64,000 nucleotides of DNA from Anaeromyxobacter sp. (GCA_049840735.1 JASGJN010000026.1:480001-544000), one strand, 5' to 3'. Shown: positions 37,560-62,538, numbered from the stretch's first letter. The notes: generated by a model from the letters alone, not told the origin. Numbers and translations: made by a program.

Positions 37560-37613
37560 CAGCGAGCCGTTCAACCCGAGCACCCACCCGCACGATCAAC
37601 AGGAGCTGACCCC

Positions 37614-38825
37614 GTGAAGAAGACCCGCACCCTCCCCCTCGCCGCAGCGGCCGCGCTGGCCCTGCTGGGCGGCCGTGCCCAGGCGCAGTCCGAGCAGTCC
37701 CAGCCCGTCGCGCCCGCACCCCCCCCTGCCGCCGCACAGCCGGCACCCGCCGCGCCGGCTCCGGCCCCTGCGCCCGTCACCGCCCCGGCGGCGGCCAAGC
37801 CCGCCTCCAAGGGCCCACAGCTCTACGGCTTCGTCCAGCTGCAGCTCTCGCAGCTCAAGCCGCCCAGCCCGGCCCACGACAGCTCCACCTTCGAGGTCCG
37901 TCGCGCGCGGCTCGGCGCCAGGGGCGATCTGACCGGGCAGATCGGCTACGCCGCCATCTACGACTTCGCCGACTCCTCGCTCAAGGACGCCGTCATCGCC
38001 GGCAAGAACCTGGGCTGGGCGCCCGGCGTCGAGCTGCGCTTCGGCCAGTTCAAGACGCCGTTCGGCTGGGAGCAGCCCGAGTCGGACTACAAGCTGCTCT
38101 GGGTCTACAGCTCCTACGTGGTGCAGGCGCTGGCCCGCTCCACCACCACCTCCTCGGTCACCGCCACCCCCGACGCGCGCGACATCGGGGCCCAGCTCCT
38201 GGGCAAGTGGGGCGGGCCGGCGCTGACCGGCGAGCTGACCGCGGCCGTCACCAACGGCGCGGGCCCGAACCGCAAGGACGACCTCGACCGGAAGAACCTG
38301 TGGGGCCGCGCCGGCCTGGCCGGCAAGCTCGGCCCGGTCAGCCTCCGCGGCGGCGTCTCCTACGCCCACGGCCGGCAGCTGGCCGGGCTGGGCGCCAACG
38401 CCAAGTTCGACGGCGTGGGCACGTTCACCGACGACACCTTCTTCGACTTCGACACGGTGGGCGGCGACGTCGAGCTGGACAGCAAGTGGCTGTTCGTGGC
38501 GGCGGAGTACATCCAGTCGGATCGCGATCAGTCGGTCTACGCGGCCGGCGTGGCCACCGAGACCTCCTACAAGGCGCGCGGCTGGTACGCCGGCGCGTAC
38601 GGCAAGACGCCGTGGCGGGTGGGCCCCGTCGTCCGGGTCGAGCAGTACGACCGGAACCGCTCCACCGACGACGACACCGCGGAGCGCTACACGCTCGGCC
38701 TCTACTACGACCTCGACCAGGTCCCGGTGAACACCCGGCTCATCTTCAACTACGAGCTGGACCAGTCCGACGACGGCGTGAAGGTCGGCGACCGGGCTGT
38801 CCTGCTCGGTCAGGTGATCTTCTAG
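37614..38825 (+). CDS. Outer-membrane porin (OprO/OprP-like), probably for sulfate/anion entry
   Basis: Signal peptide, Pro/Ala linker, FEVRRARL, GQFKTPFG.E, RDIG, terminal Phe; follows sbp. Confidence 0.8.
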   Translation: MKKTRTLPLAAAAALALLGGRAQAQSEQSQPVAPAPPPAAAQPAPAAPAPAPAPVTAPAAAKPASKGPQLYGFVQLQLSQLKPPSPAHDSSTFEVRRARLGARGDLTGQIGYAAIYDFADSSLKDAVIAGKNLGWAPGVELRFGQFKTPFGWEQPESDYKLLWVYSSYVVQALARSTTTSSVTATPDARDIGAQLLGKWGGPALTGELTAAVTNGAGPNRKDDLDRKNLWGRAGLAGKLGPVSLRGGVSYAHGRQLAGLGANAKFDGVGTFTDDTFFDFDTVGGDVELDSKWLFVAAEYIQSDRDQSVYAAGVATETSYKARGWYAGAYGKTPWRVGPVVRVEQYDRNRSTDDDTAERYTLGLYYDLDQVPVNTRLIFNYELDQSDDGVKVGDRAVLLGQVIF

Positions 38826-41431: not shown

Positions 41432-44400
41432 TCAGGCGGCCAGCGCGGTGCTCCGCCGGCCGCCGCTGACCTCGCCGCGCTTCCAGAGGAAGTAGACCGC
41501 CGGGTAGACCAGCAGCTCCATGAGGAAGCTGGTGATCAGGCCGCCCACCATGGGCGCCGCGATGCGCTTCATCACGTCGGCGCCGGCGCCGGTGGACCAC
41601 ATGATGGGCAGCAGGCCCATCATGGCGGCGAACACCGTCATGGCCTTGGGGCGGACGCGCTTCACCGCGCCGTGGATGATGGCCTCCACCAGGTCGGCCT
41701 CGGTGTTGAGCTTGCCCTGCTTCTTGTACTCGTCGTGCGAGAGGTCGAGGAAGAGCAGCATGAACACCCCGGTCTCGGCGTCGAGCCCCATCAGCGCGAT
41801 CAGGCCCACCCAGACCGCGATGGAGACGTTGTAGTCGAGGGCCCAGAGCAGCCAGACCGCGCCGATGGCGGAGAACGGCACCGCCAGCATCACGATGGAC
41901 GCCTTGAAGGCGCTCTTGGTGTTCAGGTAGAGCAGGCCGAAGATGACCAGGATGGTGAGCGGCAGGATGGACTTCAGCCGCTCCTTCACGCGGAGCATGT
42001 TCTCGTACTGGCCGCTCCAGGTCATGGCGTAGCCGGCCGGCGTCTTGACGCTGGCCTCCACCGCCTTCTTGGCCTCGGCCACGTAGCTGCCCACGTCGAT
42101 CTTCGAGGTGTCGAAGTCCACGTAGACGTAGCCCGCCAGGAGCCCGTCCTCGTCGCGGATCATCGACGGCCCCTGGGCCAGCTGCACGTCGGCGATCTCC
42201 TCCATGGGGATCTGGCCCTTGCCGCCCGGGAGCGGCAGCAGCACGCGCCGCAGCGCCGACAGGTCCTCGCGGTAGTCGCGGGCGTAGCGGACGTTGATCC
42301 CGTACCGCTCGCGCCCCTCCACCGTGGTGCTCTGGTTGTCGCCGCCCACCGCGGTCATCACCATCATGTTGGCGTCGTCCACCGAGAGGCCGTAGCGCGC
42401 CAGCTGCTCGCGCTTGAGCACGAAGTCGAGGAAGTAGCCGCCCGCCACGCGCTCGGCGTAGACGCTGCGGGTGCCCGGCACCTTGGAGACCGCCGCCTCG
42501 GTGTCCTTGGCGATCCGCTCGATGGTGGCCAGGTCGGCCCCCATGATCTTGATGCCGATGGGCGTCCGGATGCCGGTGGAGAGCATGTCCAGGCGCCCCT
42601 TGATGGGCATGGTCCAGGCGTTGGAGATGCCGGGCAGCTGGAGCGCCGCGTTCATCTCGGTCTCCAGGTCCTCCTGCGTGATGCGATCGCGCCAGAACGG
42701 GCGCAGCCCGGCCTTGAGCCAGTCCGGCGCCCAGCCGGAGTACCAGCGCGGCACCTCGCGCCACTCCTGCTCCGGCTTGAGGGTGATGGTGGTCTCCATC
42801 ATCGTGAACGGCGCCGGGTCGGTGGAGGTGTTGGCGCGGCCGGCCTTGCCGAAGACCCGCTCCACCTCGGGGAAGGTGCGCAGGATCTTGTCCTGCAGCT
42901 GGAGCGCCTTCTGCGCCTCGGCCACCGACATGCCCGGCTCCACGGCGCTGGGCATGTAGAGGATGGTCCCCTCGCGCAGGGGCGGCATGAACTCCGAGCC
43001 CAGCTGCAGGTAGACCGGGATGCTGGTCAGCACCAGCAGCAGGCTCACGGCGATGGTGGCCTTGGCGTGGCGGACCACGAACCGGCACGGCCGCTCGTAG
43101 AGGTGGTGCAGCGCCCGGGAGATGGGGTGGCGCTCCTCGGAGTGGTACGTCCCCACCAGCGTGGAGGTGGCCAGCCTGGCCAGCATCCGGGGCCGGAAGG
43201 TGAAGGGCTCGATGCGCGCGAAGAGCATGCGCATGGCCGGGTCGAGGGTGATGGCCAGCAGCGCGGCGATGGCCATGGCCAGCGTCTTGGAGTAGGCCAG
43301 CGGCCGGAAGAGCCGGCCCTCCTGATCCACCAGCGTGAAGACCGGCAGGAAGGCGACCGCGATCACCAGCAGCGAGAAGAAGACGCCCGGCCCCACCTCC
43401 AGCAGCGCCTCCAGCCGGACCTGGTGGAAGTCGCCCTTCTTCCCGTCCTTCACCCAGTGGTGGATCTTGTTGTAGGCGTTCTCCACCTCGACGATGGCGC
43501 CGTCCACCAGCACGCCGATGGAGATGGCGATGCCGGCCAGCGACATGAGGTTGGCGTTGAGCCCCATGAAGTACATGGGGATGAAGGCCAGGGCCACCGA
43601 CACCGGGATGGTGACGATGGGGATGATGGCCGAGGGGATGTGCCAGAGGAAGATGAGGATGATGATCGAGACGATGATGATCTCCTCGATCAGCTTGTAC
43701 TTCACCGTCTCGATGGCGTGGCCGATCAGCTCCGAGCGGTCGTAGGTGGTCACCACCTCGACCCCCTTCGGCAGCGACGGCTTCACCTGCTCCAGCTTCG
43801 CCTTGATGCGGTTGATCACGTTGAGGGCGTTCTCGCCCTGCCGCATCACCACGATCCCGCCCACCGCGTCGCCCTGGCCGTCCAGGTCGGCCACGCCGCG
43901 GCGCAGCTCCGGCCCCAGCGCGACGGTGGCCACGTCCTCGATCTTGACCGGCGTGCCGCCCTCGGCGCGCAGCACCATGTTCTCGATGTCGGCGATGGAC
44001 TTCACGTAGCCGCGGCCGCGGACCATGTACTCGCGCCCGGCCAGCTCCACCAGGCGCCCGCCGACGTCGTTGTTGTTGGCCCGCACCGCCTTGATGACCG
44101 CCTCCAGCGGCAGGCCGTAGGAGGCCAGCGCGTTGGGGTTGACGGTCACCTGGTACTGGCGCACCTGCCCGCCCACGGTGGCCACCTCCGAGACGCCGGG
44201 CACGCTCTGGATGGCGTAGCGGAGGAACCAGTCCTGGTAGGTGCGCAGCTCGTCGGAGGAGTGCTGCCCGGTCCGGTCCACCAGCGCGTACTGGAAGACC
44301 CAGCCCACGCTGGAGGCGTCCGGGCCCAGCTCCACCTTCACGTCGCGCGGCAGCTGCGGGGTGATCTTGGACAGGTACTCGAGCACGCGCGTGCGCGCCC

Positions 44401-44710
44401 AGTACATGTCCGTCCCGTCCTCGAAGATGACGTAGACGTAGCTGAACCCGAAGTCGGAGAAGCCGCGGATGGCCTTCACCTTGGGCGCGCCCAGCAGGGC
44501 CGCGGTGATCGGGTAGGTGACCTGGTCCTCCAGGATGTCCGGGCTGCGATCCCACTGCGAGTAGACGATCACCTGCGTGTCGGACAGGTCCGGCAGGGCG
44601 TCGAGCGGGATCTCCTTCATCGTCGCCCAGGCGCCCACCAGGGCGGCGATGGTGACGGCGATGACGACGTACTTGTACTCCGCCGAGAAGCGGATGATGG
44701 CCTTGATCAC
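41432..44710 (-). CDS. cusA: CusA/SilA-type heavy-metal RND efflux pump
   Basis: LDALPDLSDTQVIV, EDQVTYP, YWARTRVLEYL, GSEFMPPL.EG, TDPAP..M.ET, RIAAPMVGG. Confidence 0.93.
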   Translation of the reverse strand: MIKAIIRFSAEYKYVVIAVTIAALVGAWATMKEIPLDALPDLSDTQVIVYSQWDRSPDILEDQVTYPITAALLGAPKVKAIRGFSDFGFSYVYVIFEDGTDMYWARTRVLEYLSKITPQLPRDVKVELGPDASSVGWVFQYALVDRTGQHSSDELRTYQDWFLRYAIQSVPGVSEVATVGGQVRQYQVTVNPNALASYGLPLEAVIKAVRANNNDVGGRLVELAGREYMVRGRGYVKSIADIENMVLRAEGGTPVKIEDVATVALGPELRRGVADLDGQGDAVGGIVVMRQGENALNVINRIKAKLEQVKPSLPKGVEVVTTYDRSELIGHAIETVKYKLIEEIIIVSIIILIFLWHIPSAIIPIVTIPVSVALAFIPMYFMGLNANLMSLAGIAISIGVLVDGAIVEVENAYNKIHHWVKDGKKGDFHQVRLEALLEVGPGVFFSLLVIAVAFLPVFTLVDQEGRLFRPLAYSKTLAMAIAALLAITLDPAMRMLFARIEPFTFRPRMLARLATSTLVGTYHSEERHPISRALHHLYERPCRFVVRHAKATIAVSLLLVLTSIPVYLQLGSEFMPPLREGTILYMPSAVEPGMSVAEAQKALQLQDKILRTFPEVERVFGKAGRANTSTDPAPFTMMETTITLKPEQEWREVPRWYSGWAPDWLKAGLRPFWRDRITQEDLETEMNAALQLPGISNAWTMPIKGRLDMLSTGIRTPIGIKIMGADLATIERIAKDTEAAVSKVPGTRSVYAERVAGGYFLDFVLKREQLARYGLSVDDANMMVMTAVGGDNQSTTVEGRERYGINVRYARDYREDLSALRRVLLPLPGGKGQIPMEEIADVQLAQGPSMIRDEDGLLAGYVYVDFDTSKIDVGSYVAEAKKAVEASVKTPAGYAMTWSGQYENMLRVKERLKSILPLTILVIFGLLYLNTKSAFKASIVMLAVPFSAIGAVWLLWALDYNVSIAVWVGLIALMGLDAETGVFMLLFLDLSHDEYKKQGKLNTEADLVEAIIHGAVKRVRPKAMTVFAAMMGLLPIMWSTGAGADVMKRIAAPMVGGLITSFLMELLVYPAVYFLWKRGEVSGGRRSTALAA

Positions 44711-46224
44711 GGCGCGTGCCCCTGGTGCGCGTCGCCCTGGCCCGCCGCCGCCGGCGTGGCCGGCGCGCCCGCGCCCATGGCCGCCAGCGAGGCGCGCAGG
44801 CGCGACTCGGAGTCGATGAGGAAGTTGGCGCGGGTGACGACCTGGTCGCCCTCGCGCAGCCCGGTGACGACCTCGACGTGCGCGCCGTCGGAGTCGCCCA
44901 GCTCCACCTCGCGGGGCTGGAACTTGCCGTCGCCCAGCGCCACGAAGACCACGCTCTTGGTGCCGGAGTCGATCACCGCGTCGGAGGGGATGCGCAGCCC
45001 CTCGCGGCCGCGCCCCTGGAGCACCACCTCGCCGAACATCTCCGGCTTCAGCTCGCCGGTCGGGTTCCCGAACTCCAGGCGGACGTTGACGCTGCGGGTC
45101 TTCGGGTCGAGCAGCGGGGCGATGAAGGCGACGCGCCCCTGGAAGGTGCGGTTGGGGTAGGCCTTGAGCGTGAGCGTCGCCGACATGCCCACCTTCACGT
45201 GGCGCAGCTCGCTCTCGTAGACGTCCGCCACGACCCACACGCGCGAGAGGTCCACGATCTCGTAGGGCATGTCGCCGGCGTTGACGCGCATCCCCGGCAC
45301 CACGTCCTTGCGCGTGATGACGCCGGTGGCCGGCGCGTAGAACATGACGTCCTTCACCGGCTGGCCGGTGCGGGCGATCTTGGCCAGCTCGCCCTCCGAG
45401 ACGTCCCACAGCTCCAGCTTGCGCCGGGCCGCCGCCACCAGCTCGTCGCCGTCGCTGACGCCGGCCCCGCCGCCCTTCAGGGCGTCGCGGGTGCGCAGCG
45501 CCAGCAGGTACTCCTCCTGCGCGGCCAGCAGCTCGGGGCTGTAGAGCGCGAAGAGCGGCTCGCCCCTCCTCACCGCCTTGCCCACGAAGTCGCCGTGCGC
45601 GTGCTGCACGAAGCCGCCCACCTTGACGTTGACGTGGTGCACGCGCGTCTCGTCCACCGCCACGCGGCCGGTGGTGCGCCAGGCGCCGCCCACCGCGCCG
45701 CGGTCGGCCGCGACGGTGCGCAGCCCGATCAGCTGCTGGCGGGCCGGGTCGATGTTCACGGTGGCGAGCCCCTCCGCGTCGGAGGCGGCGGCCCCCGCCG
45801 CGCCGGCCGCGCCCGCCGCCACCTTGACCAGCTTCATGCCGCAGATCGGGCAGTCGCCGGGGTGGTCCTGGACGATGGTCGGGTGCATGGGGCACTGCCA
45901 GGTGTCGTGCGCGGCGGCCGCCGGCGCGTCCTTGGCCGCGGCCGCCCCGGCCCCGGCCACCTTGACCAGCTTCATGCCGCAGATCGGGCAGTCGCCCGGG
46001 TGGTCCTGCACGATGGTCGGGTGCATGGGGCACTGCCACTGCTCCGCCGCCGCGGCCGGGCCGCCGCCGGCGCTGCCGTGGTCGTGGTCGCGGTGGAGGA
46101 ACCAGCTGCCGCCCAGGGCCAGGCCGGCCGCGGCCAGGGCCACCAGCACGAGGCTGCCGGCGCCGAAGCGCGGGCCGCGGGGAGACGGGGAGGAGGGCTC
46201 GGGGGTCGTCATGGGGTCGGTCAC
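44707..46224 (-). CDS. cusB: CusB-like RND membrane fusion protein with two heavy-metal-binding domains
   Basis: 2x WQCPMHP..DCPICGMKLV, LYSPEL..AQEEYL, LKPEMF, ANFLIDSES. Confidence 0.9.
   Translation of the reverse strand: MTDPMTTPEPSSPSPRGPRFGAGSLVLVALAAAGLALGGSWFLHRDHDHGSAGGGPAAAAEQWQCPMHPTIVQDHPGDCPICGMKLVKVAGAGAAAAKDAPAAAAHDTWQCPMHPTIVQDHPGDCPICGMKLVKVAAGAAGAAGAAASDAEGLATVNIDPARQQLIGLRTVAADRGAVGGAWRTTGRVAVDETRVHHVNVKVGGFVQHAHGDFVGKAVRRGEPLFALYSPELLAAQEEYLLALRTRDALKGGGAGVSDGDELVAAARRKLELWDVSEGELAKIARTGQPVKDVMFYAPATGVITRKDVVPGMRVNAGDMPYEIVDLSRVWVVADVYESELRHVKVGMSATLTLKAYPNRTFQGRVAFIAPLLDPKTRSVNVRLEFGNPTGELKPEMFGEVVLQGRGREGLRIPSDAVIDSGTKSVVFVALGDGKFQPREVELGDSDGAHVEVVTGLREGDQVVTRANFLIDSESRLRASLAAMGAGAPATPAAAGQGDAHQGHAP
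45818..46038 (-). repeat. Near-identical ~83 bp intragenic direct repeat (45818-45900 and 45956-46038)
   Basis: Both copies encode WQCPMHPTIVQDHPGDCPICGMKLVKVA; DNA differs only at a few synonymous positions. Confidence 0.85.
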
Positions 46225-46231
46225 CTGGGGA

Positions 46232-47689
46232 TCACATTCCGGAGTTCATCGAGGAGGAGCCGCCGCTGGCCTCGGCCGGCGCCGCGGCCGCGGGCGCGCC
46301 GCCGCCGGACATCCCGCCGCCGGAGGCGCCCGCGCCCGGCACCGGGGTCCCGCCCATGCCGCCGCCCGCGCCCGCTCCGCCCGGCGCGTCGAGGCTGACC
46401 TCGCCCGCCGCGATGGCGAGCTGCTGGGCCCCCGCGGCGGCCTGCAGGAAGCCGTCCTCGTCGGCGATGTAGCCGGCGTTGGCCTCCAGCACGGAGGCGA
46501 AGGTGAGCTTGCCCACGCGGTACTGCGCCAGCGTGCTCTCGGTGGTGGCGCGGGACTGCACCAGCAGCCCGTCGCGGTAGAGGCGCAAGGTCTCCAGCGC
46601 CGCCGCCAGCGCGTTCCGGCGCTCGGCCACGCGCAGCCGCAGCGTCTGGGCCACGGCCTCCTGGCCCTGCGCGCTGGCCACGCCGCGCGCCTGCCGCTCC
46701 TCGACCGCCTTGCCCTGCTTGCTGCCCGACCAGACCGGCAGGCCGATGGAGACGCTGGCCAGCCACATGGGCTCGAGCTGGCCGCGGGGCATCAGCCCCA
46801 CCGTGAGCCCCAGGTCCGGGAAGCGCTCGCGCCGCGCCAGCGTGGTGCTGGCGTCGGCCTGCCGGGCCGAGAGGCGCGCCGCCGCCAGCTCCGGGCTGCG
46901 CGCGAGGGCGTCGTCCAGCGCGGCCTGCCCGTCCGGCAGCGCCGGCAGCGGCTGGTCGCGCAGCCGCGCGCCCAGCGCGATGGGCTCGTCCAGCGGGTGG
47001 TCGCGGAGCCGGTTGAGCGCCTGCAGCCGGGCGGTCTCGTCGGCCTGCAGCGCCACGCGGCGCTGGCGCAGCCGCACCAGCTCGAGCTGGGCGCGCAGCA
47101 CGTCGGACTGGGCGCCCTCGCCGGCCTCGTAGCGCGCGCGCGCGGTGCCGATCGACTTCTGCCAGAGCGCCTCCAGCTGGTCGAGCAGCCCCAGCCGGTC
47201 GCGGACCAGCTGCAGCGCCAGGTAGGCGCGGCGGACCTCGGCCTCGGCCGTGAGGCGCTGGCGCGAGACGGTCGCCCCGGCGGCCTCGGCGGAGAGCCGG
47301 GCCACGTCCCGGCGCATGCCGCGCTTGCCCGGCCAGGGGAAGCTCTGGCTGAGCATGATCTGGTAGTAGCTCGTCTCCATCTCGCCGATCTGGATCTTCT
47401 CGAAGCCGTCGTTCTGGATGCCCAGCGAGAGGACCGGGTCGGGCAGCGCGCCGACCTGCGGGACGCGCGCGCGCTCGGCCGCCACGCTGGCCTCGGCCTG
47501 CTTCAGCTCCGGCCGCGCGGAGAGCGTGTCATCGATGAGCCCCCGCAGCACCGGGTCGTCCGGCGGCGTGGGGGGCAGCGGCTCGGTCGCGCCCGCCAGC
47601 GGCGCGGCCAGCAGGATGGCCAGCGCGGCCGCCAGCCGGGCGGGGCGCAGGGAGGGCAACGTGCGTGGAGGGCAGGGGGGGAGGGTCAT
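46232..47689 (-). CDS. TolC/CusC-family outer-membrane efflux protein
   Basis: Signal peptide, LPDP.LS, QSFPWPGKR, RYEAG..Q.DVLRAQ; first gene of the RND operon. Confidence 0.88.
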   Translation of the reverse strand: MTLPPCPPRTLPSLRPARLAAALAILLAAPLAGATEPLPPTPPDDPVLRGLIDDTLSARPELKQAEASVAAERARVPQVGALPDPVLSLGIQNDGFEKIQIGEMETSYYQIMLSQSFPWPGKRGMRRDVARLSAEAAGATVSRQRLTAEAEVRRAYLALQLVRDRLGLLDQLEALWQKSIGTARARYEAGEGAQSDVLRAQLELVRLRQRRVALQADETARLQALNRLRDHPLDEPIALGARLRDQPLPALPDGQAALDDALARSPELAAARLSARQADASTTLARRERFPDLGLTVGLMPRGQLEPMWLASVSIGLPVWSGSKQGKAVEERQARGVASAQGQEAVAQTLRLRVAERRNALAAALETLRLYRDGLLVQSRATTESTLAQYRVGKLTFASVLEANAGYIADEDGFLQAAAGAQQLAIAAGEVSLDAPGGAGAGGGMGGTPVPGAGASGGGMSGGGAPAAAAPAEASGGSSSMNSGM

Positions 47690-47950: not shown

Positions 47951-49381
<1,431 letters not shown>

Positions 49382-49397
49382 CCGCCCCGGTCTCACC

Positions 49398-49414
49398 GTG
49401 ACCGGGACGGTCAC
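49398..49414. promoter_or_regulatory. Putative enhancer (activator binding site)
   Basis: GTGACCGGGACGGTCAC. Confidence 0.6.
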
Positions 49415-49478
49415 AGGCGCCTGGCCGTGTGCGCTTGAATTTCACCCTTCCAGGGCCGTCTCTCGGGTGGAAACGCTC

Positions 49479-49494
49479 CGGCACGCCGCGTGCT
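49479..49494 (+). promoter_or_regulatory. Sigma-54 (-24/-12) promoter of the cupredoxin gene
   Basis: CGGCACGCCGCGTGCT = GG-N10-GC. Confidence 0.6.
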
Positions 49495-49528
49495 ATGGAC
49501 CTGCTGCTCTGAGCCGTTTCGCGAACCC

Positions 49529-49583
49529 CCGCTCGCCCTGAGCGTAGCCCCGCCGGCAGGCGGGGCGGAGTCCAAGGGCAGGG
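49529..49583 (+). repeat. Palindromic REP-like element, copy 4
   Basis: CCGCTCGCCCTGAGCGTA-[GCCCCGCCGGCAGGCGGGGC]-GGAGTCCAAGGGCAGGG. Confidence 0.8.
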
Positions 49584-49603
49584 ACCCACAGGAGCCGAAC
49601 CGA

Positions 49604-49984
49604 ATGAACCGCATGCTGCTCGCCGTCTCCGCCGCCGCCGTCCTCTTCGCCGCCACCGCCTGCCGCGCCGAGGACCACTCCCAGCACATGAAGTCGGGCG
49701 CCGCTGCCAAGCCGGGCGCGCGCGTCGTCGCCGTGGAGATCACCGACGACGGCGTGAAGCCGGACCAGATCCAGGCCAAGGCGGGCGAGACGGTGCAGCT
49801 GGCCGTGACGCGGAAGACCGACAGGACCTGCATGACCCACATCGTCCAGAGCGACCTGGGCATCGACAAGGCGCTGCCGCTGGGCCAGACCGTGACCGTG
49901 GACGTGACGCCCAGGGCCGCCGGCAAGATCAAGTTCGTCTGCGGGATGGGGATGGACCTGGCGACGCTGGTGGTGACGAAGTAG
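49604..49984 (+). CDS. Exported cupredoxin-domain protein (CupA-like copper chaperone)
   Basis: Signal/lipoprotein leader (ATAC), DHSQHM, TC..., FVCGMGM. Confidence 0.8.
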   Translation: MNRMLLAVSAAAVLFAATACRAEDHSQHMKSGAAAKPGARVVAVEITDDGVKPDQIQAKAGETVQLAVTRKTDRTCMTHIVQSDLGIDKALPLGQTVTVDVTPRAAGKIKFVCGMGMDLATLVVTK

Positions 49985-54515: not shown

Positions 54516-54535
54516 CGAAACCAGGGGAGGTCGCA

Positions 54536-55433
54536 ATGTTCGCACGTGGAGTCGTGGCGCTGGCGCTCGTGGCGCTGGCCGGTACCGCAGCTGCCAAGGA
54601 CACCGTGGGCTTCTCGGTGTCGACGCTCAACAACCCGTTCTTCGTCACGCTCAGCGACGGCGCCAAGGCGCAGGCGCAGCAGGCGGGCGTGGACGTGGCC
54701 GTCCTCGACGCGCAGGACAAGGTGGACAAGCAGGTCTCGGACATCGAGGACCTGATCCAGCGGAAGGTGAAGGTCATCCTGATCAATCCGACCGACTCGG
54801 CCGCGGTGGTCCCGGCCGTCAAGGCCGCCAACGCCGCCAAGATCCCGGTCATCACCGTGGACCGCGCCTCGGGCGGCGGCGACGTGGCCTACCACATCGC
54901 GTCCGACAACGTGGCCGGCGGCCGGCTGGCGGGCGAGCACGTCTGCAAGCTGCTGGGCGGCAAGGGCAGCGTGGTGGAGCTGGAGGGCATCCCCGGCTCG
55001 TCCGCGGCGCGCGATCGCGGCCAGGGCTTCAACGAGGCCATCAAGGCCAAGTGCCCGGACGTGAAGGTGGTGGCCCGCCAGACCGCCAACTTCGACCGCG
55101 CCCAGGGGCTCTCGGTGATGGAGAACGTGCTCCAGGCCCAGCCCAAGGTGGACGCCGTCTTCGCCCACAACGACGAGATGGCGCTGGGCGCGCTGCAGGC
55201 CATCAAGGGCTCGGGCAAGAAGAATCAAGGTGGTCGGCTTCGACGCCACCGACGACGCGGTCAAGGCGGTGAACGCCTGCGACATGGCCGCCACGGTGGC
55301 GCAGCAGCCGGGCGAGATGGGCCGCCTGGCCGTCGAGAAGGCCGCCGCGCTGGGCAAGGGCGGCAAGGCGCCGGCCAAGACCGAGTTCATCCCGGTGGCG
55401 CTGAAGCTGGTCACCGGCGCGAGCTGCAAGTAG
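54536..55433 (+). CDS. rbsB: Ribose-binding periplasmic protein; apparent +1 frameshift at 55222-55226
   Basis: STLNNPFF, NPTDS, SDNVAGG, FAHNDEMALGA; correction gives KKIKVVGFD. Confidence 0.9.
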
Positions 55434-55558: not shown

Positions 55559-56875
55559 TCATGGCACCACCCAGAACCCGGTCCGGCGGACCAGCGCGGT
55601 GACCACGAAGGCGCGGCCGTCCTCCGGCCAGATGCGCGCCTCGACGAAGGCGGAGCCCTGCCCGGGCTGCGCCGCCCGGGCGTCGAAGCTGATGGAGAGC
55701 GCGCCGGCGTCGGCCGTCGTGGACCCGCCGGCGGGCAGCGCCTCGAAGCCGGCGTAGTACTCGCCCGCGCCCGCCGAGGCGGTCCAGCCGACCAGCAGCG
55801 GGTCGGCCGCGCTGACGGTGGCGCCGTCGGCCGGCGCCTCCAGCGCGAACTCGCCCGGCATGGTGAACACCTGCCCGGCCGAGACGCCCGCGCCGGTCAC
55901 CGAGACCAGGAAGCTGCTCCCCGGCGCCACCAGCGTGGTGGCCGGCTCGGAGAGCACGTAGGCGCCCTGCAGGTCGTCCCAGGGGATGGGCCGCCCGTTG
56001 ACCTGGACGGCGGCGTCGGTGACCGGGCCGGACGGTCCCGTGACGGTCAGTGAAATCTCCAGCCGGTCCCCGTCCAGCACCACGCGCCCGTCGTAGGCCA
56101 GCGTCTCCGGGTCGCCGCCCCCGCCGCCCCACAGCCCGCACACGTCGGCCAAGAGGAAGGTGAGCCAGCCCGCCTGGCAGACGAAGGCGTCGTAGACGGG
56201 GCCGCCGCTGGTCAGCGAGAGGCGGGTCCGGGAGGTGAGCGGGACCACCGCGGCCGAGTCGTCGTCCAGCGCCTGGACCAGGTTGAAGCCAGGGGCCAGG
56301 CCGCTCTCCGCCGGCTGCGCCGAGTCCACGTAGACGAGCGCGAAGGTGGCGCGCGGGTCGCCCAGTAGCGACGAGCCGATCACCCGGTCCACCGGCGCGC
56401 CGTCCTCCGGGATCAGGTCGAGCTGCCGGTCGCCGTCCAGGTCCTGGTAGGCGAGCAGCACGCCGAAGCTGCCGCGGCCGTCGAGCCCGCCGCCCAGCGG
56501 CGCCTGCGCGGCGCGCGGAGGCGGGCGGTAGATGGGGAAGCGGAACTCCACCGGGAAGGTGCCTTGGGCCTCCACGTCCTCGGTCACCACCGTGGGCGGC
56601 GCGGCGCCGCCGGAGGGATCCTCGGCGGAGAGCCACTGCGGGTACCAGGCCACCGCCAGCCGGACCGGGCCGGACAGCTCGGTCTCCGGGGTGGGGACCA
56701 TGCTGCCGCCGAGCGTGGCCAGCGGCTCGCCGGGATAGTCGCCGCCGACCAGCTCGTCGCCGCAGCCGGCCAGGAGCAGCGCGGAGCAGGCAGCGAGCAG
56801 CGGCAGCGCCCCGTTCGTCCTGGGCGTAGCCGCCGCGCCTCGCGGCGGCGGAGTCGAAGGGCAGGGGCGGCGCAT
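55559..56875 (-). CDS. Uncharacterised lipoprotein, last gene of the sigma/anti-sigma/caspase operon
   Basis: TGATG coupling to the caspase stop; lipobox LLAGC; DLDGDRQLD loop; N-domain paralogous to 59883-60611; extra beta-rich C-terminal domains. Confidence 0.8.
   Translation of the reverse strand: MRRPCPSTPPPRGAAATPRTNGALPLLAACSALLLAGCGDELVGGDYPGEPLATLGGSMVPTPETELSGPVRLAVAWYPQWLSAEDPSGGAAPPTVVTEDVEAQGTFPVEFRFPIYRPPPRAAQAPLGGGLDGRGSFGVLLAYQDLDGDRQLDLIPEDGAPVDRVIGSSLLGDPRATFALVYVDSAQPAESGLAPGFNLVQALDDDSAAVVPLTSRTRLSLTSGGPVYDAFVCQAGWLTFLLADVCGLWGGGGGDPETLAYDGRVVLDGDRLEISLTVTGPSGPVTDAAVQVNGRPIPWDDLQGAYVLSEPATTLVAPGSSFLVSVTGAGVSAGQVFTMPGEFALEAPADGATVSAADPLLVGWTASAGAGEYYAGFEALPAGGSTTADAGALSISFDARAAQPGQGSAFVEARIWPEDGRAFVVTALVRRTGFWVVP
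56811..56866 (+). repeat. Palindromic REP-like element, copy 6, inside a CDS
   Basis: CCGTTCGTCCTGGGCGTA-[GCCGCCGCGCCTCGCGGCGGC]-GGAGTCGAAGGGCAGGG within the lipoprotein signal-peptide coding region. Confidence 0.8.
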
Positions 56876-58440
56876 CACAGCCTCCAGCCGAAGCCGGCCC
56901 AGGCGGACGCGGTGGCGCGGGTGACGGTGCCCTGCCCCTCGATCGGCGCCGCCGTGGCCATGAGCTGCCCCTGCAGCAGCGCGAAGGCGCGCCGGCGGAT
57001 GGGGACCTCCAGCCCCGCCACCAGCCCCCCGCCCACCGCCAGCGCGCGGCGCTCCGGCAGCGGCGCGCCGCCGCCGCCGCCGATCTCCCCCTCGGCGTCG
57101 CGGGTGGCCTGCTGCTCCACCCCGGTCAGCTCCAGCCCCAGCCCCAGCTGCGGCACCACCGGCCACTCCAGCCAGCGGTACCCCGCCGACAGCCCCACCC
57201 CCAGCCGCCGCTCGTCGATCTGCAGCGCGTCGCCGGGGTAGCGCGAGCTGCCGGCGCTGAGCGCGCCCAGCGCCCACCACGGCCCCCAGGTGTGCCGGTA
57301 GCCCAGCCCCGCCGCCCAGCGCGGGCCGGTGTCCTCCACCGGCGCGGTGCCCATCCCGCCCAGCAGCAGCAGCGCGCCGTTCCGCACCGACACGTACCCC
57401 CCCTTCATCGAGACCTCGGTGTACCGGCGCCAGGCCAGCTCCTCGTCCTGCACCTGCCGCTCCCCGCCGTAGGGCAGCTCCACCTCGGCCAGCCCGGTGC
57501 TGGCGCCGGCCTTCTTGCGCACCAGGTAGCGGCCTGGCGGCACCGCCAGGCGGAGCGGGCGGCCGGCGGCCTTCTCCACCTCGGCCACCACGTCCGGCCT
57601 GGGCTGGCTGGCCACCACGTAGCGCCCGGAGAGCCGGGCCGGGAAGACCAGCGCGCTGCCGGCCGCGCGCGGCTCGGTCAGCGTGAGCTCGCCCGTCCCG
57701 GAGAGCTCCCAGGCGAAGGCGGGGTGCTGCCCGGCGCCGGCCGCGCCCGCCACCGTGCGCCGGTAGGCGTAGGTGTAGGCCTCGGCCAGCGAGACCTTGC
57801 CGTCCCCCTCGGCGTCGGCGTCGCCGCGCAGCCCGGTGAGGAGGTGGTGGGTGAAGAGCGAGCCCTTGAGCGAGTCCCACTCCTCGCTGGCCTCCCCCGG
57901 ACCGCTGGAGGAGATCACCACCTGGCCGTTGAGCGGGAGCTGCTCCAGCGAGACCGCGAACTCCGGCCCCGGCCGCGCCCCCTTGCGCCGGGCCACCACC
58001 CCGCTCTCGCAGGCGTCCACCAGCAGCACCGTCACCCGCGCGCCCGCGTCCCGGGCGGCGTCGCGCAGCTCGGCCAGCGGCAGGTGCGTGCCGCGCAGGT
58101 GGAGCACGCCGTCGTCGGCGTGGGAGGAGACGTAGACGATCAGCACCGCCTCGTCCCCGGCGGCGCGCAGCTCCGAGATGCGGCCGGCCAGCTCGGCCAG
58201 CCGCTGCCGCACCGCCTGGGCGTCGCGGTCGACCACCAGCAGCGCGCGGTCGGCGCGGACCCCGCCCAGCTCCACGAAGACCTGGCGCACGCGCTGGGCG
58301 TCCTCGTCGGCGTAGCTCAGGACGGGATCGTCCGGGTCGCCCACGTTGGCCCCCACCGCCAGCACCAGCCGGTGCGTGGCGGCCGCGGCCGGCGCCGCCG
58401 CGGCCAGCAGGGCCAGCAGCGCGAGCGCGCGGAACCTCAC
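56875..58440 (-). CDS. Exported caspase-family (C14) protease with C-terminal putative outer-membrane beta-barrel
   Basis: Signal peptide; LSYADEDA, YVSSHA (His107), LLVDACESG (Cys144), SLFTHHLLTGLRGDAD, EAY.Y, GQHP; amphipathic strands ending AGFGWRL. Confidence 0.85.
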   Translation of the reverse strand: MRFRALALLALLAAAAPAAAATHRLVLAVGANVGDPDDPVLSYADEDAQRVRQVFVELGGVRADRALLVVDRDAQAVRQRLAELAGRISELRAAGDEAVLIVYVSSHADDGVLHLRGTHLPLAELRDAARDAGARVTVLLVDACESGVVARRKGARPGPEFAVSLEQLPLNGQVVISSSGPGEASEEWDSLKGSLFTHHLLTGLRGDADAEGDGKVSLAEAYTYAYRRTVAGAAGAGQHPAFAWELSGTGELTLTEPRAAGSALVFPARLSGRYVVASQPRPDVVAEVEKAAGRPLRLAVPPGRYLVRKKAGASTGLAEVELPYGGERQVQDEELAWRRYTEVSMKGGYVSVRNGALLLLGGMGTAPVEDTGPRWAAGLGYRHTWGPWWALGALSAGSSRYPGDALQIDERRLGVGLSAGYRWLEWPVVPQLGLGLELTGVEQQATRDAEGEIGGGGGAPLPERRALAVGGGLVAGLEVPIRRRAFALLQGQLMATAAPIEGQGTVTRATASAWAGFGWRL

Positions 58441-59186
58441 GGCGCCTTCCGCAGCCGGAGCAGGCTCACCCGGCAGCCGCCGCACTCGAGCCGCGGCTCG
58501 GGCCGGCCGGCCTGCCGGCGCAGCGCCTCCAGCAGGGGCGCGGCCTCCAGCGGCCGCTGCGAGAAGACCGCCAGCAGGAGCTCGGGGCCGGGCGCGTCGT
58601 CCAGCACCACGCTGCCGGGCAGGAAGTCGCGCCGCCCGGCCTCGACCGGCGCAGAGGACGCGCCGCCGAAGGGGAGGAGCACGCCGGCCTGGCCGCGCCC
58701 GTCCAGCTCCAGCACCAGCAGGAAGCCCGGCTGCGCGGCCTCGTACGAGAACCGCAGCGCGTCGCCGGCGCGGACCTGGGCGTCGCTCGCCGCCAGCTCG
58801 GGCGCGCCGCCGGCGCGCGCCACCGCCACGCGGAAGGGCTCGCCCTTGAGCGTGACCTCCGGCGTCACCTGGGCCTGCCGCAGCACCAGCACGGCCAGCA
58901 CCGCCGGGACGGCCAGCGCCAGCACCGGCCGCCAGCGGCGCAGCCAGGAGGGCGCGGCGGCCTGGGCGCGTCAATCCAGCTGGCGGAGGAAGCGGTCCGG
59001 CGGGCGCGCGCGCAGGAAGGCCTCGGCCTCGGCGCGCAGCGCCGCCACGTGCGCGGCGCAGGCGCTGCAGCTCCCGAGGTGGGCCGCGACCTCGGGGGCC
59101 GGCTCGCCGGCGCTGAGCGCCTCCAGCGCCGCCGCCGGCGGGCAGCCCGGCGCGCGGGGGGCAGGGGGGAGTGGGGTGGGGCTCAT
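58437..59186 (-). CDS. Anti-sigma factor (ZAS zinc motif, TM, DUF4384-like periplasmic domain); in-frame TGA at 58971-58973, likely a sequencing error
   Basis: HLGSCSAC; TM VLALAVPAVLAVLVL; GDALRF, LPGSVVLDDAPGPE; both ORF halves share one frame and GAT-TGA reverts to GAT-CGA. Confidence 0.78.
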
Positions 59187-59195
59187 GGCGTGACC

Positions 59196-59687
59196 TCACC
59201 GGTGGGCGCGCCAGAGCGCGCGCACCTGCTCCTCGAAGCGCTGCAGCTTCTTGCCCACCGTCCGGCGCGAGTAGCCGGTCCGCTCCGCCACCTCCTCCTG
59301 CGTGTAGCCGTCGAGGTGGTGGAGCACGCCGATGGTGCGGGTCTTCCCGTCCAGCTGCCGGAGCGCGGCGCCGACCAGCGCCCGCCGGTCGGCGTCGGCG
59401 GCGTCGCCGTGCCCCTGCCGCTCCAGCGCGGCCAGCTGCTCCTCGCCGGCCACCGGGTCCCGCCGCTGCTTCTCCAGGATGTCGAAGCAGACGCGGCGGG
59501 CCACCGTGTAGAGCCAGGCCAGCGTGGCGCCGGCGTCGTCCGGGGCCGCGCCCAGCCGGCGGATGCGCAGGAAGGTCTCCTGGAGGGCGTCCTCCGCGTC
59601 CTCGCTGCGCCGCAGGAGCTGCCGGCAGCGCCGGTGCACCAGGTAGCCGTAGCGGGTGTAGAGGCTCGTGAGCTGGGCGTCGTCCAT
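59196..59687 (-). CDS. ECF RNA polymerase sigma factor
   Basis: Region 2 LY.RY...V.RRC..LL..EDAEDALQETF...WLY.VA; region 4 DGYTQEEVA..TG.SRRTV. Confidence 0.9.
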   Translation of the reverse strand: MDDAQLTSLYTRYGYLVHRRCRQLLRRSEDAEDALQETFLRIRRLGAAPDDAGATLAWLYTVARRVCFDILEKQRRDPVAGEEQLAALERQGHGDAADADRRALVGAALRQLDGKTRTIGVLHHLDGYTQEEVAERTGYSRRTVGKKLQRFEEQVRALWRAHR

Positions 59688-59715
59688 GTCGGCACGTGGG
59701 GCTCCTCGATCACTG

Positions 59716-59838
59716 GACCGGGGATCGGCCCGAAACTGGGAACCACCATCCTGGCGAACGCCCATTTATGGCGTGAAACACGTGCGCCGCGCCGCAGCCC
59801 ACTCAGGGCCGTTCCCACCTGGCGCCCGGGTCGCCGTC
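59716..59838. promoter_or_regulatory. Twin divergent ECF-type promoter motifs (59743-59716 minus; 59811-59838 plus)
   Basis: GTTCCCA-N16-CGGTC pointing at the sigma gene and GTTCCCA-N16-CCGTC pointing at the lipoprotein; identical spacing. Confidence 0.65.
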
Positions 59839-59882
59839 TCCCTTCCCGAACCTCGCTCACGAGGCCACGAACCGGAGAGACC

Positions 59883-60611
59883 ATGACCGCCACGCCGTCC
59901 AAGTCCACCCACACCCGCGCACTCGCCGTCGCGCTGGCCGTGCTCGCCACCGCCTGCGGCTCCGGCGGCACGTCCGGCTCCCACCCGAGCCTATCCGGCC
60001 AGCTCCGGGCCTCGGAAGGCGGCGCGGCCCAGGGCCCGCTGCGGCTCGCGCTGGCCTGGTACCCCGGGCTGCTCGCCGCGGAGGGGGAGCCCATCAGCCA
60101 GCCCGGCCACATCGCCACCCAGGACCTCGCCTACGAGGGGGCGCTGCCGCAGGCCTACACCTTCTCGCTGCAGGGCGCCCCGCCGGCCAGCGTCCTGCAG
60201 GCCATGCCGGAGGGCTACACCGGGGAGGGCGCGGTGGGCGTGCTGCTCGCGTATCGGGACGGGAACGACAACGGCGCGCTCGACACCATCCCGGCCGACG
60301 GCAGCCCGGTGGACCATGTGGTCGGCGCTTCGCTGGACTGGGCCGCGGCCCCGGCCTACCTGGTGGCCTACCTGACCGAGGATCAGGACCCGGCCTCGGG
60401 GCTCGAGGCGGGGTTCAACCTCATCGAGATCAGCGACGCCGAGGACGCCGCGGTGGTGCCCTTCGGCACCGCGGTGCCGCTGACTATCGGTGAAGGAGGC
60501 CCGCTGCTGGACCTGTTCGTCTGCGAGGCCGCCTGGGACGGCTCGTCGGCCGAGGTGCCCTGCGGGCTGGTGCCGGAGGAGCCGGCGCTGCAGGCCCAGC
60601 CGCGGCGCTGA
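59883..60611 (+). CDS. Uncharacterised lipoprotein, paralog of 55559-56875
   Basis: GGAGA RBS; lipobox LATAC; GPLRLALAWYP, GVLLAYRDGNDNGALD.IP.DG.PVD, GFNL, FVCEA.W...CGL. Confidence 0.8.
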   Translation: MTATPSKSTHTRALAVALAVLATACGSGGTSGSHPSLSGQLRASEGGAAQGPLRLALAWYPGLLAAEGEPISQPGHIATQDLAYEGALPQAYTFSLQGAPPASVLQAMPEGYTGEGAVGVLLAYRDGNDNGALDTIPADGSPVDHVVGASLDWAAAPAYLVAYLTEDQDPASGLEAGFNLIEISDAEDAAVVPFGTAVPLTIGEGGPLLDLFVCEAAWDGSSAEVPCGLVPEEPALQAQPRR

Positions 60612-60645: not shown

Positions 60646-62538
60646 TCAGGCCCGCGCCGCCGGGAGGTGGAGCGTGAAGGTGGTCCCCGCCCCGGGGCGG
60701 CTCTCCACCTCCACCCGCCCGCCGTGGTCCTCGGCGATGTGCTGGACCATGGGCAGCCCCAGGCCGGTGCCGCGCCCGGGCGCCTTGGTGCTGAAGAACG
60801 GCTCGAAGATGCGGGCCAGCACCTCGGGCGGCATGCCCGGGCCGGAGTCGCTCACCTCGATGCGCACGCCGTCCCCGTCGCGCCGCGCGCGCAGGGCGAC
60901 GGCGCCGCCCTCCGGCATCGCGTCGCGCGCGTTGATGAGCAGGTTCACCAGCGCCTGCTCCAGCTGCACCTCGCGCCCGTCCAGCGGCGGCAGGCCCGGC
61001 TCCACCTCGACCGTCAGCGTGACCTGCGGCCCCATCACGCGGCCCACCAGCGCGGCCACCTCGCGCACCAGCCGGTCCACCTCGAGCTGCTGGGAGGCCT
61101 GCCGCGGGGCGCCGCGGCTGTAGGTCAGCAGCGCCCGCATCATCTCGGCGCAGCGGCGGGCCGCGTGGCGCGCGACCCTCAGGTCGGGCGTGAAGGGGTG
61201 CTCCGGCCCCAGCGCCTCCAGCGTCGGATCGAGCTGGCCCAGCACGATGGTGAGCTGGTTGTTCACGTCGTGGGCGAGGCCGCTGGCCAGCGTGGCCACC
61301 GTCTCGCGCCGCTGGCTGTGGTGGAGCTGCTCGCGCAGGGTCGAGTGCTCGTGGGCGGCCCGGCCGGCCCGCTGCAGCGCCTCCGCCAGCGCCACCGTGG
61401 GCGGGGCGGGGGTGGGCTGGCCGGCCGGGGCGGCGGGCCGGCCAGGGGCCTCGGCCAGCTCGTCGAGCGGGCGGCCGAAGCGGCGGGCGATGGAGCGGGC
61501 GCGCAGCATCAGCACCACGAAGCCGAGGATGGCCAGGGCCAGCACGCCCAGCGCGCGCCGGCGGCTCACGCCCATGATCTCCGGCTCGGGGATGGCCACC
61601 ACCACGTACCAGGTCAGCCCGGCCGGCCCGCGGTAGGGCCTGACCAGGCCGTAGTGGGCCACGCCCTCCGCGTCGCGGGTCACCAGCTGCCGGCCCTCGG
61701 GCGGCAGCGCCAGGAGCCCGTCGGCCAGCGGCGCCAGCTCGGGGCCCAGCCGCGCCACCGGCCCCAGGAACTGCGCCAGCCGGGCCTCGCGCGACTCGAA
61801 GGCGGCGCGGTGGGGGAGGACCAGCGAGCGGCCCTGGGGATCGGCCAGGACGATCTCGGTGCCGGGCGTGGGGGCGATGGCCCAGAGCCGGCCGGTGAGG
61901 TCGTCGAGCATCACGTCCAGCGCAATCACCCCCTCCAGCGCGCCGGCGCGGCGGATGGGGAAGGAGAGCGTGATGCCCGGGTCCTGCGTGGTCATGAACT
62001 GGTAGGCCTCGGGCGACCAGCGCGGCGCGTCCGCGTCCCCCACGCGCGTGTACCAGTCGCGCTGGCGCGGATCGTAGCCGGTCGCGTCCCAGGGCTCGAT
62101 GCGCGTCACGCCGGCGTGGCGGCGGGTCCAGCGCAGCTCCGCCTCCCCGGCGCCGCGGCGGCGCAGCGCTCGCGAGTGCCAGCCGCCGGGCTGGCGCAGC
62201 TCCAGCACCGAGGTGCCGTCGGCGCTGCACAGGTTCACCGACGAGACGAACGTCTGCGCTTCGAGCAGGGGGAGCGAGAGCGCGTCCACGCGCTCGGGAT
62301 CGTCCAGCCGGAGGGTACCGTCGAGCCACCACCCCGCCAGCGTCGTGCCCACCCGGCTGGCCGAGGCCAGCTCGCCGTCCAGTGCCTGCGCCGCGCGCTC
62401 CGAGGCGTCCGCGGCGCGGGCCCAGGCCTGCGCGTCCAGCGCCCGCACCACCCCCCACCAGCCCAGCCCCAGCACCGCGGCCAGCAGCAGTCCGGTGAGC
62501 GTGAGGATCTCCCGGTAGAGGTAGCCGCTGATCCGCAT
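60646..62538 (-). CDS. Membrane sensor histidine kinase with Cache-type domain
   Basis: TM, YDPRQRDWY, W..AY.F...PGIT, TM, AHDVNNQL, NARDAM, FFSTK..GTGLGL. Confidence 0.9.
   Translation of the reverse strand: MRISGYLYREILTLTGLLLAAVLGLGWWGVVRALDAQAWARAADASERAAQALDGELASASRVGTTLAGWWLDGTLRLDDPERVDALSLPLLEAQTFVSSVNLCSADGTSVLELRQPGGWHSRALRRRGAGEAELRWTRRHAGVTRIEPWDATGYDPRQRDWYTRVGDADAPRWSPEAYQFMTTQDPGITLSFPIRRAGALEGVIALDVMLDDLTGRLWAIAPTPGTEIVLADPQGRSLVLPHRAAFESREARLAQFLGPVARLGPELAPLADGLLALPPEGRQLVTRDAEGVAHYGLVRPYRGPAGLTWYVVVAIPEPEIMGVSRRRALGVLALAILGFVVLMLRARSIARRFGRPLDELAEAPGRPAAPAGQPTPAPPTVALAEALQRAGRAAHEHSTLREQLHHSQRRETVATLASGLAHDVNNQLTIVLGQLDPTLEALGPEHPFTPDLRVARHAARRCAEMMRALLTYSRGAPRQASQQLEVDRLVREVAALVGRVMGPQVTLTVEVEPGLPPLDGREVQLEQALVNLLINARDAMPEGGAVALRARRDGDGVRIEVSDSGPGMPPEVLARIFEPFFSTKAPGRGTGLGLPMVQHIAEDHGGRVEVESRPGAGTTFTLHLPAARA

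Follow-up and report, generated by a model that had tools for sequence, protein, structure and literature searches.

A gene cassette encoding an ECF sigma factor, an anti-sigma factor, an exported caspase-barrel protein and lipoproteins in Anaeromyxobacter: a candidate trans-envelope proteolytic switch

Gene content of the locus

This work concerns a group of five genes located between positions 55,559 and 60,611 of a 64,000-nucleotide stretch of DNA from Anaeromyxobacter sp. (GCA_049840735.1 JASGJN010000026.1:480001-544000), hereafter called the window and numbered from its first letter. Four of them are tightly packed on the minus strand and encode, in the order of transcription, a sigma factor of the extracytoplasmic function (ECF) type, an anti-sigma factor, a caspase-barrel protein and a lipoprotein (LipA), while the gene of a second lipoprotein (LipB) is divergent from them. 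A preliminary description made from the sequence had proposed that the caspase is the site-1 protease of the anti-sigma factor, with the lipoproteins as sensor or inhibitor, as output, or as both. The five genes that it named were all found where it placed them:

55559–56875, minus strand: LipA lipoprotein gene, 438 amino acids, translationally coupled to the caspase gene
56875–58440, minus strand: caspase-barrel gene, 521 amino acids, product predicted to be exported
58437–59186, minus strand: anti-sigma frame, 249 codons, interrupted by a TGA
59196–59687, minus strand: ECF sigma gene, 163 amino acids, sigma2 and sigma4 regions only
59883–60611, plus strand: divergent LipB lipoprotein gene, 242 amino acids, predicted regulon member

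The overlaps of the anti-sigma and caspase genes (GTGA) and of the caspase and lipA genes (TGATG) were verified in the sequence, and profile searches recovered Peptidase_C14, DUF4384 and Sigma70_r2/r4_2 in the respective products. The sigma factor matched Pfam Sigma70_r2 (E 3e-13) and r4_2 (E 1e-8); the presence of only sigma2 and sigma4, together with its own bipartite promoter (by conservation), corresponds to an ECF sigma factor. The paralogy of the two lipoproteins also held, LipB being 37% identical to LipA over the N-terminal domain. The cassette represents a genuine form of protease-controlled ECF signalling, widely distributed and so far uncharacterised, and the overall interpretation given in the preliminary description was partly supported.

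The caspase-barrel protein

The AlphaFold model of the caspase protein (mean predicted local distance difference test score 85.5, from a 19-row alignment) is composed of a caspase domain (residues 22–258), a beta-sandwich (about 263–340) and a barrel (about 355–520), which follow a predicted signal peptide (1 to about 21). The signal peptide noticed earlier was borne out by a hydropathy heuristic, which detected an N-terminal hydrophobic, signal-like stretch in 76 of 79 alignment rows, the other three being N-terminally truncated records. Pfam returned Peptidase_C14 (PF00656) for residues 24–231 (E 2e-9, above the cut-off) and a sub-threshold match to an outer-membrane protein barrel. Residues 22–258 had metacaspase 4 as top fold match (Z 21.4, root mean square deviation 2.7, 208 aligned residues), in agreement with Foldseek. 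The His107/Cys144 dyad, considered intact from the beginning, was present at 67/67 loci, this set being made of 60 fetched regions, hand-chosen for flank length and family spread from several hundred matches, six earlier loci and the window. So, it can be said that the protein has the caspase fold and the His-Cys dyad of a metacaspase-type Peptidase C14.

The C-terminal region, which had been called barrel-like, was modelled as an eight-stranded barrel. Residues 351–521 gave structural matches to NspA, OmpW, OprF and OmpA (Z 15.7–16.8), the barrel matches as a whole ranging from Z 15.7 to 17.2, and the eight antiparallel strands of the model were accompanied, in 73 of 79 rows, by an aromatic residue among the last five, as in barrels of the OmpA/OmpW/NspA type. 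The number of strands distinguishes the protein from a classical autotransporter, the translocator of which is a 12-stranded barrel. Eight-stranded barrels have both termini on the periplasmic side; since the strand number is even, both ends would be on the same side and the protease would be periplasmic.

Concerning specificity, the pocket in which Arabidopsis metacaspase 4 keeps its self-cleaved Lys225 is lined by Ser84 and Asp137 (PMC7206013), the two residues to which Ser105 and Asp142 correspond in the alignment. The caspase pocket looks fit for basic P1 residues; cleavage after Lys or Arg and Ca2+-dependent self-processing, as in the metacaspase type, may apply to it. By its position in the motif only, Glu187 could be the equivalent of metacaspase 4 Asp352. 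One further feature may be related to Ca2+:

57781–57816, minus strand: EF-hand-like loop, Asp209 to Glu220

Both Asp209 and Glu220 were found in 67/67 and in 59/59 sequences of the two sets compared; the loop resembles an EF-hand and might be a Ca2+ site. The window caspase is 73% identical to its closest orthologues, its closest named homologues belong to Anaeromyxobacteraceae and Myxococcaceae, and no phage match was found for it.

A Lys/Arg-Gly motif at three sites

The same dipeptide, Lys-Gly, with Arg as the occasional replacement of Lys, occurs at three sites of the anti-sigma factor and the caspase:

58842–58847, minus strand: anti-sigma Lys114-Gly115, predicted site-1 cut, 12 residues outside the transmembrane segment
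57979–57984, minus strand: caspase Lys153-Gly154, nine residues past the catalytic Cys, predicted to be the site of self-activation
57400–57405, minus strand: caspase Lys346-Gly347, predicted release site, between the beta-sandwich and the barrel

Among 22 anti-sigma factors with a mean identity of 36%, this Lys-Gly, located in the linker between the transmembrane segment and the DUF4384 domain, accounted for the only invariant columns. Lys/Arg-Gly was present in the anti-sigma linker in 66/66 cases, Lys-Gly after the catalytic Cys of the caspase at 66/67 loci, and Lys/Arg-Gly at the junction of caspase and barrel at 65/67, Lys making up about 2% of the residues. A second set, which partly overlaps the first 67 loci, gave 51/52 for the anti-sigma linker and a Lys or Arg in 58/59 at each caspase site. 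The model has only two segments of low confidence (155–168 and 345–349), and each of them adjoins one of the caspase sites. The exchange of Lys and Arg at two of the sites is as expected for a basic P1 residue. The three sites suggest that the caspase activates itself, detaches from the barrel and makes the site-1 cut.

A search was also run from the anti-sigma side over ten genomes and 60 loci, of which four were dropped for having no profile match, with the motif counted by eye. Lys/Arg-Gly followed the transmembrane segment in 47 of the 48 matches that were followed by a caspase, and in one of six partial matches, mostly zinc-domain-only, that had none. As a control, 12 DUF4384 domains were taken from four genomes outside the myxobacteria, and none had Lys/Arg-Gly at the equivalent distance.

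Related arrangements were observed elsewhere. DUF4384-like anti-sigma factors, three with Arg-Gly and one with Lys-Gly, stand beside a more distant caspase subfamily at L157, L177, L181 and L186, and a DUF4384 protein with a nearby Lys-Gly stands beside the caspase gene of L267.

Distribution and gene order

The expected recurrence of the gene trio in myxobacteria was found in the gene-neighbourhood survey, gene order being kept in other genomes: sigma factor, anti-sigma factor and caspase were adjacent, in this order and on one strand, at 64/67 loci. In the clade of the window, studied in a 41-locus set that shares some loci with the 67-locus set, the trio was present at 38/41 loci and a LipA-family gene at 40/41, with the misses at contig ends. 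A caspase match was obtained in 40/41 related genomes, and, in a sample of 151 genomes of the phylum, 102 had this type of caspase at E 1e-40, the window genome itself having four copies. In a tree of the caspase domain, the lipoprotein family clustered by clade (9 changes vs 34 when shuffled); this shows stable cassettes, not co-evolution. The clusters of neighbouring genes included no second protease conserved beside the cassette.

Some loci depart from the common layout. The caspase gene is divergent from the sigma/anti-sigma pair at L237, L238, L239, L241 and L243, and L245 (Fibrobacterales) has the full trio outside Myxococcota.

The predicted promoter and the lipoproteins

Two copies of a promoter-like sequence were located between the sigma and lipB genes:

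59716–59742, minus strand: predicted operon promoter, TTCCCA as -35, 17-nt spacer, GGTC as -10, 29 nt before the sigma start
59812–59838, plus strand: predicted LipB-facing promoter copy, TTCCCA-N17-CGTC

The clade consensus upstream is TTCCCA, 17 nt and (G/C/A)GTC. A loose form of this motif was found within 200 nt of the sigma gene at 27/38 clade loci (shuffled control: mean 0.35, maximum 2) and the strict form at 20/38; at eight further loci, the motif stands ahead of the gene of a large lipoprotein, itself located upstream of the sigma gene. Across 40 loci, it was upstream of 32/73 lipoprotein genes vs 6/215 other genes. An earlier guess of GGAAC as the -35 element was discarded, as nothing conserved came after it and it represents the reverse complement of the TTCCCA element. 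A phylum-wide k-mer search yielded no single promoter, and related promoter-like sequences were seen by eye in other clades.

The whole genome contains 41 matches to the motif, eight of them intergenic with a gene at 250 nt or less. These eight include both copies of the window and one that precedes a gene of a 488-amino-acid lipoprotein on another contig (C14):

C14, 34474–35940 (L282, 975–2441): Big_2/PD40 lipoprotein gene, candidate regulon member, carrying the cassette promoter

In domain make-up and N-terminus, the C14 lipoprotein matches the product of the gene divergent from the sigma gene in the two closest orthologous loci. The remaining five intergenic matches may be due to chance. 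The sigma factor would transcribe its own operon and lipoprotein genes. As the promoter stands ahead of the sigma gene, of lipB and of a distant lipoprotein gene, the lipoproteins are taken as outputs, one of the two roles initially considered for them; the other, that of sensor or inhibitor, is hypothetical.

LipA (lipobox Cys38) has three beta-sandwich domains, and LipB (lipobox Cys25) is a paralogue of the first of them, the N-terminal one. Neither matched a Pfam family above the cut-off; the fold search gave only generic Ig/FnIII-like matches with TM scores under 0.35, and the Atlas search only unnamed clusters and weak structural leads. By a regular-expression test, a gene with a lipobox pattern adjoined the cassette, on the downstream side of the caspase gene or on the upstream side of the sigma gene, at 53/67 loci vs 39/310 among more distant genes. 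Cassette lipoproteins belong to several unrelated families, often as paralogous pairs, the family following the caspase clade; of 18 tested, six had Pfam matches, to Ig-like, beta-propeller or RCC1 repeats. The four long-type caspases, in which the barrel is preceded by a repeat insert, lack a coupled lipoprotein downstream, and it can be speculated that LipA-like proteins serve the role of that insert.

The interrupted anti-sigma frame

The anti-sigma frame encodes a zinc domain with ligands Cys15, His36, Cys40 and Cys43, a transmembrane segment at about 88–102 and a DUF4384 domain at 138–212 (Pfam, E 8e-7). The HxxxCxxC motif, the transmembrane segment and the DUF4384 domain were thus found as earlier reported; the frame is not open:

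58971–58973, minus strand: in-frame TGA, codon 72, between the zinc domain and the transmembrane segment

Zinc domain, transmembrane segment and periplasmic domain form one polypeptide in the orthologues and, because of this TGA, not in the window copy. The codon is CGC or CGG (Arg) in the two closest orthologues, and, of 52 aligned rows, 26 have Arg in this column and the window alone has a stop. If the stop is real, the product would be a soluble zinc domain of 71 amino acids. We lean slightly towards an assembly error. It is quite possible that the TGA is a real nonsense change, which would leave the switch signal-blind and the sigma factor probably on, because the equivalent fragment of the Myxococcus xanthus anti-sigma factor DdvA is undetectable in vivo, according to the accessible text of that study (PMC11506125). 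Readthrough is highly improbable. Selenocysteine or another recoding was rejected: the orthologues have Arg or other ordinary residues, and the mid-gene stop candidates were few, with TAG and TGA mixed; there were 36 for 5493 called genes, and by eye the majority were ordinary gene ends. No Shine-Dalgarno-like sequence was seen for re-initiation at the GTG at 58925. The exact DNA pattern around the TGA had 0 metagenome matches, a result that carries no evidential weight.

Other interrupted genes were noticed in the genome, besides several mid-gene stops. A ribose-like sugar ABC binding protein gene (about 54530–55433, plus strand), 350 nt from lipA, has an A-rich frameshift near 55218, with its halves in different frames. 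A paralogous long-type caspase (L037, 7148–9245; contig C20, about 794150–796250) is frameshifted near residue 310, and the gene upstream of the sigma gene of L037 is a copy, with 38% identity, of the repeat-plus-barrel part alone, devoid of the caspase. The frameshifts of these two inspected genes fit with consensus errors and are no proof of them.

Proposed mechanism and alternatives

In our judgement, a trans-envelope proteolytic switch is probably the best explanation of the cassette. The caspase would be exported, and its modelled barrel, inserted in the outer membrane, would hold the protease on the periplasmic side. An envelope signal, perhaps perceived through the barrel or the coupled lipoprotein, might then activate the caspase, possibly with Ca2+; this is the weakest step. 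A self-cut after Lys at Lys153-Gly154 and Lys346-Gly347 would free the protease from the barrel, and the freed protease would cut the anti-sigma factor at Lys114-Gly115, near the inner membrane, with removal of the DUF4384 domain. By analogy with DdvA, an RseP-type protease would cut the transmembrane stub and the zinc domain would be degraded. The sigma factor would finally transcribe its own operon and the lipoprotein genes from TTCCCA-N17-(G/C)GTC. The release of the sigma factor by site-1 and then site-2 cleavage is predicted from the motif and from a full-length M50 (RseP-type) gene present in the genome, and RseP is described in the accessible text of the DdvA study as degrading DdvA after loss of the periplasmic domain (PMC11506125).

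The role of site-1 protease attributed to the caspase in the preliminary description is indirectly supported, and on stronger grounds than those given there, by the motif, by gene adjacency and by the periplasmic topology. One refinement concerns the tethered form: held at the outer membrane, the protease could hardly reach a cut located 12 residues outside the inner membrane, and the third Lys-Gly site, at the barrel junction, suggests a prior release.

Four alternatives were weighed. It is unlikely that the caspase belongs to what the sigma factor induces, being dedicated to envelope processing, defence or cell death, and that a general periplasmic protease cuts the anti-sigma factor, whose Lys-Gly would have another reason to be conserved. 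This would agree with the position of the caspase gene under the sigma factor's own predicted promoter, with the existence of loci with Lys-Gly-bearing anti-sigma factors and no caspase domain, and with the autolytic role proposed in a 2012 survey, in its accessible part (PMC3501461). However, the same dipeptide marks the two linker sites of the caspase itself, anti-sigma-like matches without a caspase mostly lack the motif (1/6 have it), and LipA-family lipoproteins show no Lys/Arg-Gly conserved across the family.

We regard as improbable that the Lys-Gly loop is a pseudo-substrate or inhibitor, bound and released as in FecA-FecR, with cleavage being incidental. A Lys in the active-site pocket self-inhibits metacaspase 4, and PCi inhibits PCaspase while also being its substrate (10.1101/2023.06.23.546230), but the catalytic pair is kept at every one of the 67 loci, and a site about 12 residues from the inner membrane would be hardly accessible to a tethered protein without a release cut.

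A foreign or upstream Lys/Arg-specific protease (of prey, competitor, phage or host) could cut all the sites, leaving to the caspase only the amplification of the alarm. All three sites are exposed Lys/Arg-Gly linkers, and in a Haliangium CRISPR locus PCaspase is activated through a cut made by SAVED-CHAT (10.1101/2023.06.23.546230). This scheme is made distinctly improbable by the lack of a second protease conserved among the neighbour clusters, by the pocket of the caspase, itself apparently suited to basic P1 residues, and by the constancy of the motif across paralogues with different lipoproteins. Finally, it is very improbable that the window copy is a decaying cassette, for which nothing about a functional system could be read from the features of the family, as the TGA at codon 72 and the frameshifted paralogous caspase might indicate, given that the two promoters and every other motif are intact, that the caspase keeps 73% identity to its closest orthologues and that the frameshift in the sugar-binding gene and the mid-gene stops elsewhere fit consensus errors.

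Several observations weigh against the proteolytic switch. The window copy, as sequenced, cannot work as proposed, owing to the stop codon. The loci are related to each other and were selected through caspase matches, so that the counts overstate independence. There is a caspase without sigma or anti-sigma factor at L126, and at L155 an anti-sigma factor beside a caspase lacks the motif; conversely, two full-length anti-sigma matches keep Lys-Gly without an adjoining caspase, and three of the 12 control DUF4384 domains have Lys-Gly elsewhere within the 50 preceding residues. Two loci (L280 and L281) have sigma factor, Lys-Gly-bearing anti-sigma factor, a barrel-only gene and a lipoprotein, and no caspase domain in 12 kb:

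L281, 3087–5487, and L280, 6737–9153: cassette beside dnaN; the barrel-only gene keeps the signal peptide and Arg-Gly before the barrel

In these genomes, the caspase of the act locus, treated below, could act in trans. The nearest precedent, the self-cleavage of DdvA, is itself unproven in the accessible text of its report, in which cleavage by RseP is demonstrated (PMC11506125).

Relationship to the act operon

Members of this anti-sigma family are named 'ActD-like' in databases. Two loci with a caspase and no sigma gene have, in this order, a receiver-like/GGDEF gene, a sigma-54 activator, an epimerase-GNAT gene, an 'ActD protein' and the caspase, the first three being orthologues of actA, actB and actC of the M. 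xanthus act operon (actABCD):

L283, 4705–11869, and L284, 4362–11649: act operon orthologues

The receiver-like/GGDEF gene belongs to the same 90% cluster as the 'C-signal regulator ActA' of M. xanthus DK1622. ActD of both loci matched the anti-sigma profile (E 2.5e-62) and keeps the Lys-Gly, and the caspase that follows is of the long type, with a barrel and both Lys/Arg-Gly sites. The window anti-sigma factor is 33% identical to ActD over 246 columns (pairwise E 2e-13); unlike it, ActD is devoid of zinc ligands, and the two are distant paralogues, not orthologues. The genomes of L283 and L284 have a second locus with a sigma gene, a 51%-identical anti-sigma gene, a barrel-only gene and a lipoprotein gene, and the parts of both loci may work in trans. 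Mutants in actD reportedly shift the timing of C-signal production. Tentatively, and with somewhat more doubt than confidence, a phylum-wide class of cell-surface signalling might be envisaged in which a caspase zymogen parked on its small outer-membrane barrel frees itself at a Lys-Gly site, traverses the periplasm, cuts a dedicated anti-sigma factor at the same motif and induces lipoproteins particular to the cassette, ActD and its caspase being one such pair and helping to time the C-signal in Myxococcus development.

Other genes of the window

A dCache-type histidine kinase gene (60646–62538, minus strand) converges on lipB and is not conserved beside other cassettes. Farther away, Cus-like heavy-metal efflux genes, accompanied by those of a sensor kinase and of a small protein of cupredoxin type (41432–47689, minus strand, and 47951–49984, plus strand), and a sulfate uptake and assimilation cluster (29892–38825) were recognised by eye.

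Comparison with known systems

If the proposal is true, it assigns a signalling function, with a substrate and the site of its cleavage, to the main group of myxobacterial metacaspases, hitherto guessed to be cell-death enzymes; it implies a dedicated site-1 protease travelling from the outer to the inner membrane, a design not found in the literature searched; and it gives a biochemical function to ActD, known from development in a model organism amenable to genetics. The literature search retrieved no paper on a barrel-caspase/DUF4384 mechanism; it left subscription literature mostly outside, so an earlier description is possible.

The earlier statement that this layout had no mechanistic description needs qualification: a 2012 survey had pointed out the sigma-metacaspase operon but gave no mechanism for it, and a periplasmic site-1 step by a caspase fold was proposed for DdvA in 2024. 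In the accessible part of the 2012 survey, operons of sigma-70 and metacaspase genes are reported in Myxococcus xanthus DK1622, Anaeromyxobacter, Haliangium, Sorangium, Ralstonia and Fibrobacter, and four of the five M. xanthus metacaspases share their operon with a sigma factor (Asplund-Samuelsson et al. 2012, PMC3501461). They very probably correspond to the same gene association, for which that part of the text suggests a cell-death role and makes no mention of anti-sigma factor, barrel, cleavage motif, promoter or lipoprotein regulon. By taxon, +1 gene and EF-hand context, the sigma factor may be ECF216, a comparison made by description only: the available text on this group gives it as limited to Myxococcales, with a +1 gene for a zinc finger plus a single transmembrane segment and with EF-hands near subgroup s2 (Casas-Pastor et al. 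2021, PMC7826278), and has no caspase, promoter or mechanism.

Among caspase-dependent systems, Csx29 of type III-E loci cuts the sigma inhibitor Csx30, and some Csx30 C-terminal domains are DUF4384 (PMC10028731, 10.1101/2022.08.17.504292; accessible portions). The Csx29/Csx30/CASP-sigma system, as described there, is cytoplasmic, RNA-triggered, of the TPR-CHAT type and CRISPR-linked, without transmembrane segment, barrel or lipoprotein, whereas the protease of the cassette is exported and of the C14 type. No cas genes were recognised by eye among the called genes of the window, a point on which no Cas profile search was made. PCaspase cuts sigma factor and inhibitor in the cytoplasm (10.1101/2023.06.23.546230), and other caspase systems with ECF sigma factors, none with a barrel, are included in the accessible text of Kaur et al. 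2021.

The combination of outer-membrane protein, inner-membrane anti-sigma factor and ECF sigma factor, and the two-step proteolysis, recall FecI/FecR/FecA and RseA/DegS/RseP. The cassette differs from FecI/FecR/FecA in having an eight-stranded barrel with its own protease and no TonB-dependent receptor, and its proteins gave no FecR domain match at E 0.1. With DdvS/DdvA, as presented in the accessible text (PMC11506125), it shares an ECF sigma factor, a CHCC zinc domain, one transmembrane segment and a proposed periplasmic site-1 cut by a caspase fold in the linker adjacent to the membrane, followed by RseP. In DdvA, according to the same text, a TPR-CHAT module is fused to the anti-sigma factor and the regulon is CRISPR/CBASS, while the cassette has a separate C14 enzyme on a barrel with a proposed release site, a DUF4384 ectodomain and a predicted lipoprotein regulon. 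DdvA is thus the closest mechanism, and the cassette is best described as working like DdvA and RseA without being a member of those systems.

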